A stretch of 64,000 nucleotides of DNA from Oceanispirochaeta sp. (lineage in GTDB: Bacteria; Spirochaetota; Spirochaetia; DSM-2461), in assembly GCA_963663385.2 (NCBI GenBank), contig CAXXXD010000003.1, forward strand, positions 320,001-384,000. The letters run 5' to 3'. Position numbers and translations under genes: made by a program. The notes below the pieces were generated by a model. That model was given only the letters and a program-made list of their open reading frames with translations, made no database searches and was not told the origin of the DNA. How positions within the stretch are numbered: position 1 is the stretch's first letter; each line of letters begins with the position of its first letter. Shown here piece after piece: positions 402 through 7,333 of the stretch.

Positions 402-2471
402 TTACCCCCAAAAGGATTTTAACATAGGTGCGATTACCAGCGACACCATGGACATAAGTTTAATCAGAATATTCAGGGACGGCCCCGCCGTATCCTTGAA
501 GGGATCTCCCACTGTATCACCGACGACAGCGGCCTTATGGGAATCGGACCCCTTACCGCCCAGTTCTCCTCCCTCGATGGATTTTTTGGCATTGTCCCAG
601 GCACCGCCGGAGTTGGACATGAAGATGGCCAGTACGACTCCGGATGAAGTGACTCCGGCCAACAGGCCTATCAGCATTCCCGGACCGCCCAGAAAGCCGA
701 CAAGAAGGGGCGTTGTAACCGCGATGATTCCCGGCAGCAGCATCTCCCTGAGTGCCGCTGCGGTGCTGATATCGATACACCGGTTGTAATCGGGTTCTTC
801 CGTTTCAGACAGAATCCCCGGTTTTTCCCTGAACTGGCGACGTACTTCCTCTATCATTTTAAAGGCGGCCCTGCCCACAGCTCCCATGGAAAGAGCCGAA
901 AAGAGATAGGGAATGACCGCACCGACAAACAGTCCTGTCAGAACCGGAACGCTGGTCAGGTCAATAACCGCGGCTCCCGAGGATTCCTTAAAGGATGTAA
1001 AGAGGATCAGCGCTGTCAGAGCCGCCGAACCTATGGCAAACCCCTTGCCAATAGCTGCCGTTGTATTTCCAACGGCATCCAGACTGTCCGTGATATCCCT
1101 GACTTGATGGGGCATTTCAGACATCTCGGCCAATCCCCCCGCGTTATCTGCAATCGGTCCGTAAGCATCAACGGCAAGCTGAATCCCGAGGGTTACCAGC
1201 ATGCCCATGGCGGCCATGGCGACACCGTACATTCCTCCCAGGGTGAAGCTTCCCAGAATGGCTGCGGCAATAAGGATCAGAATCGGAAAGGATGACATCA
1301 TACCGACGCCTATCCCGGTAATAATAGCAGTGGCGGCCCCTGTCTCGCAGCTCTTAACAATGGAATTCACCGGACGGGTTCCTGTCCCTGTATAGTATTC
1401 GGTTATCAGGCCGATCAAAGTACCGGCAGCAAGCCCCATACAGCTGGCCAGAAATACGGCCAGCCAGCCGGTACCGTTACCATACTGTTCATCTCCCAGG
1501 AAAAATCTGAACAGGATAAAGGCAAAGAGGGCAGCCAGCCCGGCCGCACCGAATGTTCCCGTATTCAGGGCCTTCTGGGGATCCTTTCCCGGTCCTGTTC
1601 TCACAAAAAACACGCCGATTATGGATGCCAGGATACCGACAGAGGCCAGCAGAAGCGGCAAAAGCAGAAGTTTCATTTTTACCGGAGTTGAAGCATCGGT
1701 TGTCAGGCCAAGGATCATGGCCCCGACCAGGGAACCCACATACGATTCAAAAAGGTCAGCCCCCATCCCGGCCACATCGCCTACATTATCTCCCACATTG
1801 TCGGCGATAGTGGCCGGATTACGGGGGTCGTCCTCGGGAATTCCGGCTTCGACCTTACCCACCAGGTCGGCTCCCACATCGGCCGCCTTGGTAAAGATTC
1901 CTCCGCCTACGCGGGAGAAAAGGGCAATGGATGAAGCCCCCAGGGAGAATCCTGTAATAATGGGCAATACCGTCTCTATCAGGATTTCTTCGGTGCTTCC
2001 CAGGAAATTTGTAAATATCCATAGTAAAAGAGACAGACCGGACAGGCCGAGGCCTACAACGCACATTCCCATTACGGTTCCTCCGGAAAAGGCTATCCTT
2101 AAGGCGCCGTTCATACCGCAATCCAGGGCGGACTGGGTTGTCCGTGAGTTGGATGCCGTCGCAATTTTCATCCCGATGTATCCCGACAGAGCGGACAATA
2201 CCGCGCCTACAATAAAAGACAGGGACTGAAATCTGAGAAATCCTTTATTAGCCAATGCCAGAAAAAGGGATACTATTGCAATGAAAGGAAGAAGAATCCT
2301 GTACTCCCTGTAGAGGAACGTCATGGCTCCTTCCGATACATATCCACCAATCTTCCGTAAAACCGGATTGTTAACAGGTTGTCTGTATATCCGGAAACTT
2401 GTAATTAAAGCAAAAATCAATGCACCCGTTCCAGCGGCAAAGCCTATGGGTATGAATTGATTCATATTCAT
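402..2471 (-). CDS. hppA: Membrane-bound K+-dependent, probably Na+-translocating pyrophosphatase
   Basis: Motifs [44 protein letters not shown] and [17 protein letters not shown] (Ala = K+-dependent); DLFES gate Glu as in Na+-PPases. Start moved to ATG 2471 behind AGGAG. Confidence 0.95.
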
Positions 2472-2483
2472 TTTTGATCTCCT

Positions 2484-2493
2484 ATAAAAAGTC
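2484..2493. repeat. IS110 subterminal inverted repeat (end downstream of the transposase)
   Basis: ATAAAAAGTC, exact reverse complement of 3845-3854; extends imperfectly to ~21 bp. Confidence 0.85.
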
Positions 2494-2531
2494 AATCATA
2501 AGCCTATTAACAAGCTTACAATTGAACCGGA

Positions 2532-3644
2532 TTACCCAGTTTTTACGGCATTGAATGCAGCCGCCTGCATCTTCAAGTACTTATCATCCGGAACCATCTT
2601 CAACGGATCAAAGGGTTCACGGGTTTTCAATATGGAGTACACTACCGTACTCATCTTTCTTGCAGAGGCGATAATACTCGTGCCGCTGCCCTTGTTCTTC
2701 TTCATCGCTCTGTACTTCGTCATGATACGGTAATTGCCAGTCGTTTTCCGAGTTCTAACCATTCCCATAACACACTGAACAAATGCCGTTCTCAGTTCTA
2801 CAGCCCCTCTCTTTGTTATATGCCCATGATGAATCGTCTCATTGGAGTTCTGCACCCATGGTACAAGACCGGCATAAGCCGAATACTTCTTGGCACTGGC
2901 GTACCGCTTGATATCATCCGTATAGGCCCTAATAGTCGATGCCGTTATCAATCCGACTCCCGGGATCGTCTGCAATAACTGTACATCCTCATCTTCCTTT
3001 ACAAGTTCCAGCAGGACTTTCTCTAACTGCTTGACCTGGTTCGAAACCTGATCTATCGTAGAAAGCAGCGGTTCTATCGCTTTGGCAGCGCTTCCGAAAC
3101 TCCTATGGTCCACGAGACCGATGAGGATGCGCTGCCTTTCTTTTTTACTCTGCAGCGCAGCTCTTTTTGTTTCAATTCCATACCCTAGAAGCAGTCCGTG
3201 AACCTGATTCTTCAAAGATACGACTGATTTAACAAGGATAGTTCTGGATTTAAGAACTCTACGGATATCCTCACTCTCCTGAGAACAAAGCTGTGATTCG
3301 GGAAGCATATCTTTTTCCAAGAACTCTGCTAGAGTTCTGGCATCATGCTTATCCGTCTTTTTCACTGATTCATTTACAACTTTGAATTTCAGTGTATTCA
3401 CAACCACCACCTCAATCCCTGCTAGCAATAGCTTGTTACGGAAGAACCGGGCATTTCCTGTTGATTCCACTGCAGCCCTAACATCAAGGCCCTCTTCTGT
3501 ATAGGACACTGCTTTCTCAAGAAATGCTCTGTAACCGTCCTCAGAGGTCGGATACATTCCTGATTCACAAATGCTTCTATCATCACTCAGGAAACAGACT
3601 GTTAACTGGGATTTGTGCAGATCCACTCCGATACTCATCTTCAT
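2532..3644 (-). CDS. IS110 family transposase/recombinase (DEDD RuvC-like + Tnp20 domain)
   Basis: IGVDLHK, AVESTG, KTDKHDA (D-E-D-D); LLQTIPGVGLITA, YAGLVPWVQNS, ITKRG. Start at ATG 3644 behind AGGAG. Confidence 0.95.
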   Translation of the reverse strand: MKMSIGVDLHKSQLTVCFLSDDRSICESGMYPTSEDGYRAFLEKAVSYTEEGLDVRAAVESTGNARFFRNKLLLAGIEVVVVNTLKFKVVNESVKKTDKHDARTLAEFLEKDMLPESQLCSQESEDIRRVLKSRTILVKSVVSLKNQVHGLLLGYGIETKRAALQSKKERQRILIGLVDHRSFGSAAKAIEPLLSTIDQVSNQVKQLEKVLLELVKEDEDVQLLQTIPGVGLITASTIRAYTDDIKRYASAKKYSAYAGLVPWVQNSNETIHHGHITKRGAVELRTAFVQCVMGMVRTRKTTGNYRIMTKYRAMKKNKGSGTSIIASARKMSTVVYSILKTREPFDPLKMVPDDKYLKMQAAAFNAVKTG

Positions 3645-3659
3645 ACCTTCGCTCCTATT

Positions 3660-3841
3660 GCCTAAAACAGCGCCTGTACGGTGAATTGATTCCATTCTCC
3701 TATCCGGTCTCGAAGACCATTGAATGTTTCGGTCACGGCTCTTCATTCTCCTGTACGGTCTCGGAGACCAGTAAAAATGGCGAACAGTAACCTGGCTGTT
3801 CTAAACGATGTTTAGAACATTGTATCAATCCACAAGCCTAT
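3660..3841 (-). ncRNA. Candidate IS110 bridge/seek guide RNA in the long upstream non-coding end
   Basis: Lies downstream of the predicted circle-junction promoter. 10-bp hairpin 3797-3819, then two homologous ~28-nt units (3744-3771, 3693-3720), each with a GGTCT-N3-AGACC hairpin and the AGGAG junction motif. Ends approximate. Confidence 0.65.
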
Positions 3842-3844
3842 GAA

Positions 3845-3854
3845 GACTTTTTAT
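3845..3854. repeat. IS110 subterminal inverted repeat (end upstream of the transposase)
   Basis: GACTTTTTAT, reverse complement of 2484-2493. Confidence 0.85.
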
Positions 3855-3913
3855 CATTCCTCCTTTACTATTCAAAAACGCAACTGAACTGGTGATTAGT
3901 CATATTCAGCGGA

Positions 3914-6900
3914 TTACCCCTTCAGGACTTTCAGCATCTCCTCCAGGGAAATCTTCCTCTCTTCAAAGGCGATAAACGCCTCATCTGTCACAGAGTGTCC
4001 CGCCTGGGGGCCGGGGATTAACCGGAACCGGTCATCCAGGTTCCCTTCTGTAATCGCTGCAGCTATCTGCCCGATTGCTTCGGATGCACCCTTCCTGACA
4101 CACTCCTCGCAGAGACAGACATGAATATGTTTCTTGCCTCCCGTCTTCAGGGTCGTGGGTTCGGCAACCTTCCTCATATTATTATAGGTTGTATGAAGCA
4201 GTTCTTTGGCTGTTTTGGAACGGATCTCACCCAGAAGGCGCCGGTACAGCCCCTGCACATCCGGGTTGTCCTGACTCTGCCGGATCTGCGCATCCGTATC
4301 CTGCTCATGGAGGAAGGTGGACCTTTTGGCCCAGTCGTCCTTGGTCCGGACACTGGGGGTTCCCGCTCCGGAGATACAGCCGCCGGGGCAGGCCATAATC
4401 TCTATCATGTCCAGTCCGGTATCTTCGCCGTTCTTGATCCTCTCCACAATGGGAACCGCATTGCTGATACCGCTGATAATCCCGATACGGACCGTGGCGT
4501 CTCCCAGTCTGGCCTGGCTGATCTTGACGCCCTCCATACCATGGGCTTCGGTATACTCCAGGGGTTTGTATTTATAGGCGGGGTCCAGTTTGGATGCCGC
4601 CATCCTGAGAGCCGCTTCGGACACCCCTCCGGATACACCGAAGATAATCCCCGCTCCCGTGCTCTGCCGGAAGGGGTTGTCAAACTCGGACGGTTTGACC
4701 TGATCTTTGGTAATTCTCAGGCAGTCTGCCATTTCAAATAGTTCGATGGAAGTCAGAACGGAATCCACATCCTGCAGACCGCCTGTGTACATCTCCGGGC
4801 GGTCTGCCTCTTTTTTCTTGGCCAGGCAGGGCACAATGGAAACCACATGGAGTTTTTCCCGGTCGATATCCCTGTAGAACTCGGGGAGATAGCGTTTGAC
4901 CACGGCTCCCATCATCTGCTGGGGAGATTTACAGGAAGAAAGGTGAGGAATCACTTCCGGATAGGATTTTTCCACAAAGTTCACCCATCCTGGGCAGCAG
5001 GAGGTCAGGTGAGGAAGGGGGGTTCCCTTACCCAGTCTTTCCAGAAATTCCGTGGTCTCTTCCACAATGGTCAGGTCCGCTGCAAAGGCGAAGTCATATA
5101 CATAGTCAAAGCCGATCTTTTTCAGAAGCCCGGCGATAAAACCGGAGGTTTCCGCCGAAGTCAGCCCGTAGCGTTCGGCGACCAGCGCTCTTACGGCGGG
5201 GGCAATAAAACCGACGGTCCTGCAGTCCTCTCCGCAGTTGATGGAACTGAAGACCCTGTCTGTCGCCCGGACAAAGTCCAGAGCGCCGCAGGGGCAGACA
5301 TTGACACAGTGACCGCAGGCAATACAGTTGGTTTCGGTCAGGGGCCTGCCTGTTTTGGTGGTAACCTTGAAGTTCCCGTCCAGTGAGGTCATGGCCAGAA
5401 CATCCACACCCATTACATTGGAGCAGGCGTTTACACAGGCACCGCAGCCGATACACTTGTTGTGGTTCCGGCGGATAAAAGGGTGATCCTTCTCAATGGG
5501 AAGGTAGTTGGCCACCTTGTTGACCTTTCTATATTCAATTCCGTATTCCGTGGCTGCTGCCCGGAGGGAGCAGTGCTTTTCCTGACTGCAGCCGCAGCTG
5601 AGACAGCGTTTTGACTCTTCCATGGCCTGTTCGGCTGCGATGGTGTATTCCACCTCGTCAAAAGTCTCCTTTCTTGCCTTCATCTCCGCATGACTCAGCT
5701 TAACCCGGGGAATTTCAGGTTTATCCGCAAACTCGTATTTGGGCAGGTCTTCAAAGGACTCCATGTAGCAGGTGTACTCTTTTCCCGGCAGCTGAGCATA
5801 GCCGTGAGTCAGAAAATGATCCATGGAATCTGCCGCCATCTTCCCGGCGTTGATCGCCTGAATAACCGTAGCGGGACCGGTGGTACAGTCCCCTCCCGAG
5901 AAGATCCCTCTGGCCGAGGTTTCCATGGTTTTCGGGTTAACATCAATGTCCCCCCACTTGTTCAGCTTAACCGGAAGGTCGTCCCACAGGTAGTCGGTGT
6001 TGGTCTTCTGTCCTACAGCGGAGATAATCATATCACAGGCAAGGACCGATTCCGAACCTTCCACGGGAACGGGACGGCGGCGTCCGGATTTGTCCGGCTC
6101 ACCCAGTTCCATCCTCTGAATGCCCAGACCGGCGATGTCGTTAGTTTCGTTCAGAACAATCCTGTTGGGAGCCGAAAGGAAAAGCATCTGGATTCCCTCT
6201 TCCAGGGCTTCTTCCACTTCATAAGGTTCGGCAGGCATCTGTTCCCGTGTCCTTCTATAGACCAGAGTTACCCTGGACGCGCCGTTTCTGAGGGCAGTAC
6301 GGGCACAGTCAATGGCGGTGTTTCCTCCTCCGACGACAGCCACATGACCCTCGTTGCGCTTCTCACGGCCTCTGGTAACCAGTTCCAGGTAGTGGATGCC
6401 CGGCCGTACACCGGCCACCTTTTCGCCGTCCACCCGCATGGAACTGGGTTCCCAGGATCCTACGGCCATATAAACCGCGTCAAAATCCTTCTGCAGGTCT
6501 TCCAGTCTCAGGTGCTGTCCCAGCGCTTTTCCGGTAACGATGGTCACTCCGGCTTTCTCAATACGGGCAATTTCCCTGTCCATAACATCTTCGGGCAGGC
6601 GGTAGGAGGGGATTCCGTACCGCATCATGCCTCCCGCTTTCTCCTGCCTCTCGAAGAGGGTGACATTGTGTCCCTTCAGGGCGGAATAGTAGGCTGCGGA
6701 CAGCCCCGAGGGGCCTCCGCCCACAATGGCAAGGCGTTTTCCGGTTTTTTCCACTTCAGGGAATACCGGTTGTTCCTGCTCAACCAGATCGGCCACAAAG
6801 CGTTTGACCGGGTTGATGGCTACGGGGGTGTCCACCAGGTTGCGACGGCAGGCAGCCTCGCAGGGGTGGGGGCAGACCCGGCCACAGATGGCGGGGAGAG

Positions 6901-7333
6901 GGTTGCTGTCCAGGATAATATCGTAGGCGGCTTTGAAGTTGCCCACAGCTACCTGTTTCAGGTACCCCTGAATATCCACACCGGCAGGGCAGGTTCTGTG
7001 GCAGGGGGCGGTGCAGTCCGCCTGATGGTCCTCCAGAAGTTCCTTGAGGCGGTACTTTCTGAAGTTTTCCAGATTTTCGCTTTTTGTGAATATGGTCATG
7101 CCATCGTCACAGAGGGTTATGCCGGGATGGACGAGGGAGCCGTCTCCCAGTTCGACCATACTCAGGCCGCTGTTGTCTTTCCAGTCCCGGAATTTGGGAT
7201 CGAATCCCAGAAGGGGAAGGGGAATGTCCTGATCCAGGATAACCTGGAGGATTGTCTGGTTCTGATGGATTTGGTAGTCTTTTTGGTCTACCGTAATGGA
7301 AATAGTACTGCTCCCGGTGGCGGGGGTGGACAT
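3914..7333 (-). CDS. [FeFe]-hydrogenase fused to an N-terminal GltD-like NAD(P)H/FAD oxidoreductase domain (glutamate-synthase-beta-linked type)
   Basis: GltD: APCHRTCP, CGRVCPHPCEAAC, GGGPSG, GGGNTAIDCAR. 2x[4Fe-4S]: CIGCGACVNAC, CIACGHCVNVCP. H-cluster: TSCCPGW, VPCLAKKKE, EIMACPGGCISGAG. Small-subunit motif LLHTTY. RBS AAGGAG. Confidence 0.93.
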   Translation of the reverse strand: MSTPATGSSTISITVDQKDYQIHQNQTILQVILDQDIPLPLLGFDPKFRDWKDNSGLSMVELGDGSLVHPGITLCDDGMTIFTKSENLENFRKYRLKELLEDHQADCTAPCHRTCPAGVDIQGYLKQVAVGNFKAAYDIILDSNPLPAICGRVCPHPCEAACRRNLVDTPVAINPVKRFVADLVEQEQPVFPEVEKTGKRLAIVGGGPSGLSAAYYSALKGHNVTLFERQEKAGGMMRYGIPSYRLPEDVMDREIARIEKAGVTIVTGKALGQHLRLEDLQKDFDAVYMAVGSWEPSSMRVDGEKVAGVRPGIHYLELVTRGREKRNEGHVAVVGGGNTAIDCARTALRNGASRVTLVYRRTREQMPAEPYEVEEALEEGIQMLFLSAPNRIVLNETNDIAGLGIQRMELGEPDKSGRRRPVPVEGSESVLACDMIISAVGQKTNTDYLWDDLPVKLNKWGDIDVNPKTMETSARGIFSGGDCTTGPATVIQAINAGKMAADSMDHFLTHGYAQLPGKEYTCYMESFEDLPKYEFADKPEIPRVKLSHAEMKARKETFDEVEYTIAAEQAMEESKRCLSCGCSQEKHCSLRAAATEYGIEYRKVNKVANYLPIEKDHPFIRRNHNKCIGCGACVNACSNVMGVDVLAMTSLDGNFKVTTKTGRPLTETNCIACGHCVNVCPCGALDFVRATDRVFSSINCGEDCRTVGFIAPAVRALVAERYGLTSAETSGFIAGLLKKIGFDYVYDFAFAADLTIVEETTEFLERLGKGTPLPHLTSCCPGWVNFVEKSYPEVIPHLSSCKSPQQMMGAVVKRYLPEFYRDIDREKLHVVSIVPCLAKKKEADRPEMYTGGLQDVDSVLTSIELFEMADCLRITKDQVKPSEFDNPFRQSTGAGIIFGVSGGVSEAALRMAASKLDPAYKYKPLEYTEAHGMEGVKISQARLGDATVRIGIISGISNAVPIVERIKNGEDTGLDMIEIMACPGGCISGAGTPSVRTKDDWAKRSTFLHEQDTDAQIRQSQDNPDVQGLYRRLLGEIRSKTAKELLHTTYNNMRKVAEPTTLKTGGKKHIHVCLCEECVRKGASEAIGQIAAAITEGNLDDRFRLIPGPQAGHSVTDEAFIAFEERKISLEEMLKVLKG

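Follow-up and report, generated by a model that had tools for sequence, protein, structure and literature searches.

An IS110-family element, probably bridge-RNA guided, whose natural target appears to be the translation-initiation region of genes

How can an insertion sequence land within the Shine-Dalgarno (SD) sequence of a gene and still leave that gene with an SD at its original distance from the start codon? The question arises at hppA, the gene of an H+-translocating pyrophosphatase, in a stretch of 64,000 nt (the window) from an Oceanispirochaeta sp. genome (5.31 Mb, 4 contigs, 46.5% G+C). There, a 1376-bp element sits between two copies of CTCCT on the plus strand (2479-2483 and 3860-3864), each reading AGGAG on the minus strand, which also carries the transposase open reading frame (ORF). 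Our reading, to which we give a probability of roughly 0.8, is that this is one of several near-identical copies of a bridge-RNA-guided IS110-family element that naturally targets the regions where translation of genes is initiated. The locus is made up as follows.

402..2471, minus strand: hppA, the target gene (PF03030, 894.6 bits), with its ATG at 2471-2469
2479..2483, minus strand: right-junction AGGAG, the present SD of hppA, 7 nt before the ATG
2484..2531, minus strand: right end (RE) of the element, 48 nt, non-coding
2532..3644, minus strand: transposase, IS110-family DEDD type, 370 aa (MKMSIGVDLH...), from the ORF and profile matches
3645..3859, minus strand: left end (LE) of the element, 215 nt, non-coding, predicted to encode a bridge RNA
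3860..3864, minus strand: left-junction AGGAG, the target's original SD, with the left target ..TAGTAA before it

By its profile matches, the element is an IS110-family member with a DEDD transposase (recombinase): PF01548 scored 74.4 bits (cut-off 29), PF02371 68.8 bits (cut-off 21.3) and NF033542, 'IS110 family RNA-guided transposase', 228 bits (cut-off 140). The transposase start (MKMSIGVDLH at 3644) was picked from an alignment of relatives; for hppA, whose ORF is given as 402..2471/2495, the ATG is placed at 2471. When 2484-3864 is removed, the minus strand reads ..GAATAGTAA-AGGAG-ATCAAAA-ATG AAT ATG AAT CAA.., and with the element in place the right junction reads ..GACTTTTTAT-AGGAG-ATCAAAA-ATG, the 7-nt spacing of AGGAG being unchanged by insertion. 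An initial annotation had reported AGGAG at both junctions, reconstructed the empty site as TAGTAA-AGGAG-ATCAAAA-ATG and noted the same spacing after insertion, all of which the sequence confirms.

The genome holds ten full-length copies and no partial ones, eight being identical and two differing by one mismatch. In the orientation of the transposase, all ten show the same order: left flank, AGGAG, the element (GAATGATAAAAAGTC ... TTGACTTTTTAT), AGGAG, 6-8 nt and ATG. The spacer between AGGAG and ATG is 6 nt in five copies, 7 nt in three and 8 nt in two, and each ATG opens an ORF (98-689 aa) running in the same direction as the transposase. The left flank ends in AC in eight copies, six of which have TAC.

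We compared these sites with the genomic background, defining a start-like site as AGGAG followed at 5-8 nt by an ATG that opens an ORF of at least 80 aa. Of 15,331 AGGAG sites, 888 (~6%) are start-like; 12,841 of the 15,331 lie inside long ORFs, which cover 87-88% of the genome, and among the 2,066 outside long ORFs 464 (~22%) are start-like. Outside long ORFs, the element occupies 10 of 474 start-like sites and none of 1,602 non-start sites. If purging of gene disruptions alone had shaped this pattern, about 22% of insertions would be at start-like sites, and ten out of ten would have a probability of 0.22^10, or ~3e-7. AC precedes AGGAG at 8/10 occupied sites versus 87 of 878 free start-like sites. 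Among sites matched to the guide described below (TAC-AGGAG with at least three A in +1..+6, outside long ORFs), five of eight start-like sites are occupied versus none of 18 others (Fisher's exact P ~9e-4, hand-computed). As explanations of the start-codon link, AGGAG alone, AC-AGGAG and AC-AGGAG with an A-rich spacer were each rejected, only 8-20% of such sites being start-like.

The same preference extends to other genomes. Among 30 relatives searched, two carry an element with 75% protein identity, G013 (six copies) and G009 (one copy), and every one of these copies has AGGAG-N5-7-ATG and the same termini as the window element. A scan of species-representative genomes yielded 76 loci. Those at 51-79% identity came from records labelled Spirochaetia, Marispirochaeta, Alkalispirochaeta, Treponema, Leptospira, Desulfobacterales, Gracilibacteria, WWE3, Dehalococcoidales and Dysgonamonadaceae, and those at 32-39% identity from Lentisphaeria, Victivallales and a Clostridia metagenome-assembled genome (MAG); the distant clade has other termini (AGGAG-ATGGTATGATAAAT ... 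TTTATCAT-AGGAG) and the same target. A target module was recognisable in 69 elements, representing 29 distinct guide families. With the mis-parsed loci L075 and L100 left out, 52 of the 53 remaining right flanks carry ATG 3-8 nt beyond AGGAG, the distance being 6 nt in 32. A stricter test across all clades, which required an ATG 2-11 nt away whose ORF either has at least 50 aa or reaches the locus end, was passed by 61 of 70 right junctions. The proposal in the initial annotation that the element targets ribosome-binding sites therefore stands (10/10 copies here, 7/7 in G013 and G009, and most of the 76 further loci at AGGAG followed by ATG), as does the enrichment of AGGAG before start codons that it had suggested looking for in the flanks of other copies, since only ~6% of the background sites are start-like.

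A candidate for what recognizes these sites lies in the LE. Its 215 nt fold better than all 200 shuffles (z = -3.6), and the consensus structure of 24 aligned LEs comprises 28 pairs, compensatory changes being present at 10. Within an outer stem are two similar modules, in each of which a 13-nt hairpin (GGUCNNNGAGACC) separates a 5' strand from a 3' strand.

3833-3827 with 3687-3681, minus strand: outer stem, enclosing two internal loops
3748..3779, minus strand: predicted target-binding loop
3779-3770, minus strand: 5' strand of the target loop, CAUUUUUACU
3769-3757, minus strand: hairpin of the target loop, GGUCUCCGAGACC
3756-3748, minus strand: 3' strand of the target loop, GUAC-AGGAG, the putative left target guide
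3697..3726, minus strand: predicted donor-binding loop
3726-3722, minus strand: 5' strand of the donor loop, CAUUC, pairing with LE GAATG (3859-3855)
3718-3706, minus strand: hairpin of the donor loop
3705-3697, minus strand: 3' strand of the donor loop, GGAU-AGGAG, matching the RE end ..TAT-AGGAG

The 3' strand of the target module, with the consensus G-N-N-N-AGGAG-A-N-UG, has the same sequence as the top strand across left flank and SD, so that the bottom strand would be its pairing partner, in the manner of a left target guide. Its variable bases follow the flanks. In a family-weighted comparison over 21 families, the guide base beside AGGAG matched flank position -1 at 0.93, against 0.62 with other families' guides (permutation z = 5.8), and the next base matched position -2 at 0.87, against 0.32 (z = 4.8); positions -3 and -4 gave no guide-flank signal in the same test. 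The guide dinucleotide is AC in the window element, AA in G013 and UC in G009. In the donor module, the 5' strand pairs with the LE terminus (GAATG, GCACG, GCATG or GTATG) in 118 of 120 cells (98.3%), nine of which changed on both sides; none of 500 shuffles scored as high, and slid registers were 17-42% paired. The donor 3' strand (consensus G-R-AU-AGGAG) agrees with the invariant RE ..TAT-AGGAG by identity only, the RE being without variation.

Two further observations concern the element itself. The transposase gene's own ribosome-binding site, AGGAG-N7-ATG, is a site of the targeted class; with its preceding bases it reads AAT-AGGAG-N7-ATG (3645-3662, minus strand), carries donor-like AT, not AC, before AGGAG, and is uninserted in 10/10 copies. 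Inside the transposase coding sequence (..ILIGLVDH..), 3105-3127 is 77-78% complementary over 22-23 nt to 3698-3720 and 3749-3770, covering the hairpin and guide of both modules, and on the plus strand it resembles a third, degenerate module; this could be chance, or pairing of the mRNA with the RNA loops.

What, then, reads the start codon? Our odds are roughly even that it is a CAU, invariant among target loops and located at the base of their 5' strand. Four observations count for base-pairing: CAU is invariant in 24/24 target loops, with a varying base opposite its U; the donor-loop CAU/CGU pairs with donor ATG/ACG; the sole relative without CAU, L095 (a Leptospira MAG, 52% identity), sits at a site without ATG; and flanks start with ATG, not GTG or TTG, in 52/53 cases. 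Beyond CAU, families differ in this 5' strand (CAU + 6 nt + U), which in the genome studied is rich in U, with A-rich spacers at the occupied sites. As a candidate right target guide, CAUUUUUACU predicts AG-TAAAAA, for which occupied sites in this genome are enriched, as they equally are for A content, and its register cannot be fixed. Occupied spacers match the predicted TAAAAA at 3.8 of 6 positions versus 2.09 in free ones (resampling P = 2e-5), and the plain A count separates them nearly as well (3.8 A vs 2.2; P = 1.4e-4).

Several results weigh against the element being guided to translation-initiation regions in the way that we propose. Target-loop strands compared with the right flank gave a best z of ~3 among 288 tests when anchored on AGGAG, and z <=1.4 when anchored on ATG, no more than multiple testing would yield; with no right-flank covariation, a right target guide is not demonstrated. 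Contiguous CAU:ATG pairing predicts a 5-nt spacer, and the observed mode is 6. Two of the ten left flanks (..AA and ..GC) mismatch the guide AC, and 10 of the 15 copies in the Spirochaetia MAG OY776510 carry A at flank position -2, where the guide has U. The strict test had nine failures: six with an ATG and a short ORF, L074 with ATG at 14 nt, L095 with none, and L100, whose match is unreliable. That L095 lies at a site without a nearby ATG is itself an exception to the rule. An Rfam scan of 2400-3950 (E up to 10) returned no bridge-RNA family, its three chance-level matches being to small nucleolar RNA and a viral pseudoknot. Finally, a terminator-like hairpin in the RE, discussed below, may stop transcription before the regenerated SD.

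L095 differs in more than its flank. Its target loop reads ..UUG-AGAG, and the 5' strand lacks CAU; the insertion site follows a terminator-like hairpin with a T run, and the case looks like a natural reprogramming away from start codons.

The start-codon link might instead reflect the state of the DNA, in that a sense-transcribed, AT-rich and easily melted 5' untranslated region (UTR) would let the RNA invade both strands. We consider this unlikely. It would fit the A-rich occupied spacers (3.8 A vs 2.2), the co-direction of all copies with their gene, the failure to find ATG-anchored covariation and a spacer that varies over 5-8 nt. Yet orientation is uninformative on transcription, because the asymmetric guide already fixes it, and A-rich matched sites outside ORFs are unused (0/18). 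Nor does it account for a CAU that is invariant in 24/24 loops with no conserved intramolecular partner for its U, for the equivalent donor-loop CAU/CGU that does pair with donor ATG/ACG, or for the only CAU-less relative, L095, being at an ATG-less site.

A less probable alternative still is that the element reads only NN-AGGAG with a loose preference for A-rich DNA, and that the link to start codons arose by later loss of cells with disrupted genes. Most mis-insertions would indeed break genes, given that 12,841 of the 15,331 AGGAG lie inside long ORFs, and guide-flank covariation on the ATG side is lacking. Sites outside long ORFs should be tolerable, however, and there 0/1,602 non-start sites versus 10/474 start-like ones are occupied; with equal guide match the counts are 5/8 start-like versus 0/18 others. 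The copies are 0-1 mismatch apart, which leaves little time to purge non-lethal insertions, and 52/53 flanks have ATG although ~23% of AGGAG-preceded candidate starts are GTG or TTG (a crude count, 1,034 ATG among 1,344).

That the two AGGAG are a 5-bp target-site duplication of the kind made by a DDE transposase, around an element with no AGGAG of its own, we regard as very improbable despite the identical pentamers around 10/10 copies: the enzyme is a DEDD/serine IS110-type recombinase, the donor loop (AU-AGGAG plus CAUUC) spans RE-AGGAG-LE and needs an AGGAG in the donor, the pentamers of L095 differ, and the pentamer is constant over all sites and genomes, unlike a copied variable target.

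The junctions of two relatives locate the crossover. L095 has AGAG on the left and AGGAG on the right, and L119 has AAGAG on the left, the differences falling at pentamer positions 1-2. The exchange therefore took place in the last 2-3 nt of AGGAG, which excludes a simple 5-bp duplication and would make the present SD of hppA the element's AGG plus the core. Because both 3' strands contain a full AGGAG, the donor has its own AGGAG between RE and LE. AG is suggested as the core, since pairing of the left guide (..AGGAG) and of the candidate right guide (CU opposite AG) would overlap there. The 5-bp identity is thus core plus likeness of donor and target, not a target duplication, an interpretation that the initial annotation had already favoured and that the AGGAG in both guide loops and the junctions of L095 and L119 support.

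In the bridge-RNA-guided mechanism that we propose, a circular donor (RE-AGGAG-LE) would recombine with a target (NN-AGGAG-spacer-ATG), the guides acting by base-pairing with the DNA. The left junction would retain the AGG of the target and the right junction would receive that of the element, restoring AGGAG at the original distance from the gene's ATG. The asymmetric guide would fix the orientation, placing the transposase co-directional with the target gene, and host transcription from the 5'UTR or operon would drive the bridge RNA and transposase of an integrated copy. In the circular form the two ends would meet, and the following features of the ends are relevant there.

2484-2493: RE arm of the subterminal inverted repeat, 10 nt, 100% match to the LE arm
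2495-2490, minus strand: RE -35-like TTGACT, read from the sequence
2525-2492, minus strand: RE terminator-like hairpin plus T run, a 15-pair stem with 3 GC pairs and tail CTTTTTAT
3859-3855, minus strand: LE terminus GAATG, the putative right donor
3854-3845, minus strand: LE arm of the inverted repeat, ATAAAAAGTC, partner of the RE arm
Within the LE arm ATAAAAAGTC, minus strand: -10-like TAAAAA

The ends are unlike each other, their inverted repeat being subterminal only and 10 bp long. TTGACT in the RE, 17 nt and TAAAAA in the LE would form a candidate promoter across the RE-LE joint of the circle. A regenerated site might also be hit again: downstream of the transposase in L073 (a Spirochaeta MAG), the RE terminus stands in tandem (..GACTTTTTATAGGAG, 19 nt, GACTTTTTATAGGAG), the pattern expected from a second hit on the regenerated site followed by loss of most of one copy.

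Whether a restored SD means a working gene is a separate matter. The initial annotation held that the insertion need not destroy translation initiation, and this stands for the sequence of the site; expression is another question, as the RE terminator-like hairpin could silence the gene. This 15-pair, AT-rich hairpin and its tail CTTTTTAT end the RE directly before the regenerated SD, and the hairpin with its T run may terminate transcription there. Relatives whose RE sequences differ also have a hairpin before TTGACTTTTTAT. On the gene's (minus) strand, no promoter-like site was found in 2300-4100, and the target gene may depend on read-through or be silenced. We also considered, and rejected, expression of the target gene from an outward-facing RE promoter: the -35-like TTGACT would put the -10 on the start codon, and the search of 2300-4100 on the minus strand gave no promoter-like site.

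Immediately upstream of the site lies the gene from which transcription of hppA may once have come.

3914..7333, minus strand: 1139-aa fusion of an Fe-only hydrogenase and a GltD-like oxidoreductase

Its product joins a GltD-like NAD(P)H oxidoreductase (Fer4_20, Pyr_redox_2) to the large and small subunits of an Fe-only hydrogenase. From the end of this gene to the original SD is 45 nt, and hppA was therefore probably once co-transcribed with it, transcription that would now enter the element. This genome also has another hppA-like gene (G000:C3:1346761-1346937), with 76% nucleotide identity over 177 nt, so that loss of expression of the window hppA might be tolerated.

The 30 relatives contained no empty hppA allele: their hppA DNA is at most 82% identical, with matches that never reach the 5' end, and no alignable intergenic DNA lies upstream. 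In several, (A)GGAG stands uninterrupted 5-6 nt ahead of the hppA ATG, which is only weakly relevant to the empty site. The element was also found in public sequencing runs (14 with the element, from 5 studies, no RNA run being listed among them). Assembly of four of these runs, from organisms coded A-D in four studies (X6, X8, X9 and X11), gave the element as a collapsed repeat contig (2478-3864) that stops at the element's boundaries, with loose contig ends that enter other flanks, two of them known copies. One further loose-end flank is a site absent from this genome, again with CAT-N-CTCCT. In these four assemblies there was no contig bridging the empty hppA site and there were no joints, and 1900-2400 was uncovered.

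The copies of OY776510 have a peculiarity of their own. In L049, L050, L055, L056 and L063 (5/15 copies), the 60 nt left of the element are paralogous leaders, with a hairpin CC(C/T)GCATCCATGC(G/A)GG (more diverged in L055), after which come a T run and AGGAG. We take it for a repeated 5'UTR element, possibly an attenuator or riboswitch terminator. We rejected the idea that these left flanks are remnants of earlier right ends in favour of the paralogous leader hairpin and T run.

How far can the reading be extended? With less than even confidence, we suggest a deep clade of bridge-RNA elements hard-wired for translation-initiation regions. Its members would have AGGAG fixed in both loops, two adjacent programmable bases, a CAU that reads the start codon over a flexible A-rich spacer, host transcription that drives an otherwise promoter-less RNA and transposase, an RE that returns the SD, and a third layout combining IS110 and IS1111 features, with transposases down to 32% identity. 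If true, such a clade would explain the 1997 observation on IS900 in bridge-RNA terms. More generally, the guide that spells NN-AGGAG ties the old habit of some IS110-family elements of inserting between the SD and the start codon to the bridge-RNA mechanism described in 2024. It would be a natural 'safe-harbour' strategy, with 878 free start-like AGGAG sites in this genome, 87 of them with the preferred AC, whose target is always in sense-transcribed DNA and is rebuilt on insertion, at least in its sequence. For engineering, ~2 freely programmable left-flank bases with a 5-base shared block make a useful natural extreme. For annotation, genes that follow such copies (hppA and nine others here) should be assumed neither intact nor silenced.

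The target class itself has been known since 1997, from IS900, whose complementary-strand hed ORF was reportedly aligned with host signals (Doran, 1997). New here are the explicit reading of the guide, the breadth of the clade, the SD-restoring orientation, the hybrid RNA layout and an apparent dependence on the nearby ATG. We found no paper that links bridge-RNA guides to ribosome-binding-site targeting, although the supplementary tables of Durrant 2024 may list such targets. IS900 and IS901, IS110-family elements of Mycobacterium avium, are both reported to insert between the SD and the start codon, and the IS900 target motif is CATGNNNNNNTCTCCTT (PMC8141618). As described there, they resemble our element in targeting translation-initiation signals, in having one fixed orientation, and in having neither terminal inverted repeats nor a target duplication. 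In element orientation, the published IS900 motif shows the start codon (as CATG) at its left side, so the target gene appears to run away from the transposase side, whereas here the gene is on the right and co-directional with the transposase. Unlike IS900, the window element has no long antisense ORF in the ORF listing of the window, and its RE returns AGGAG to the gene.

In the published account of bridge RNAs, left guides pair with the bottom strand across the left flank plus core and right guides with the top strand (Durrant 2024, PMC11208160). Our element is like IS621 and the IS110 group, as described in those reports (Durrant 2024, PMC11208160; Hiraizumi 2024, PMC11208158), in its DEDD and Tnp domains, an LE bridge RNA upstream of the transposase gene, and target and donor loops. 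It further shares with IS621, by the same descriptions, a guide identical to the left flank plus core, donor guides that match both ends, a short shared core and a -35 in the RE facing a -10 in the LE, the last being read here from sequence motifs. Unlike IS621, it has a 10-bp subterminal inverted repeat in place of the 2-3 bp given for IS621 (PMC11208160). By the same account of IS621, five bases (AGGAG) are common to target and donor guides here in place of a CT dinucleotide, and a ribosome-binding site is the target in place of repetitive extragenic palindromic (REP) elements, with no Rfam match here. In IS621, the guide that pairs with the bottom strand is on the 5' side of the loop hairpin, whereas here it lies 3' of the hairpin. 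The order described for the IS110-type ISEc21 is consistent with the 5'-side guide of IS621 (PMC11187229).

In this respect our element is instead like the IS1111-group seekRNA elements (ISEc11, ISKpn4 and ISPa11; Siddiquee 2024, PMC11187229), which, as described in that study, have long subterminal repeats and a bottom-strand match 3' of the other strand; the 10-nt repeat here falls within the range of 7-17 bp given for the IS1111 group (PMC11208160). Unlike in that group, the RNA here is upstream, in the LE (48-nt RE, 215-nt LE). A reversed guide order combined with an LE-encoded RNA widens the known architectures, and the layout of this element is mixed: the RNA position is of the IS110 type, and the repeat and guide order are of the IS1111 type.

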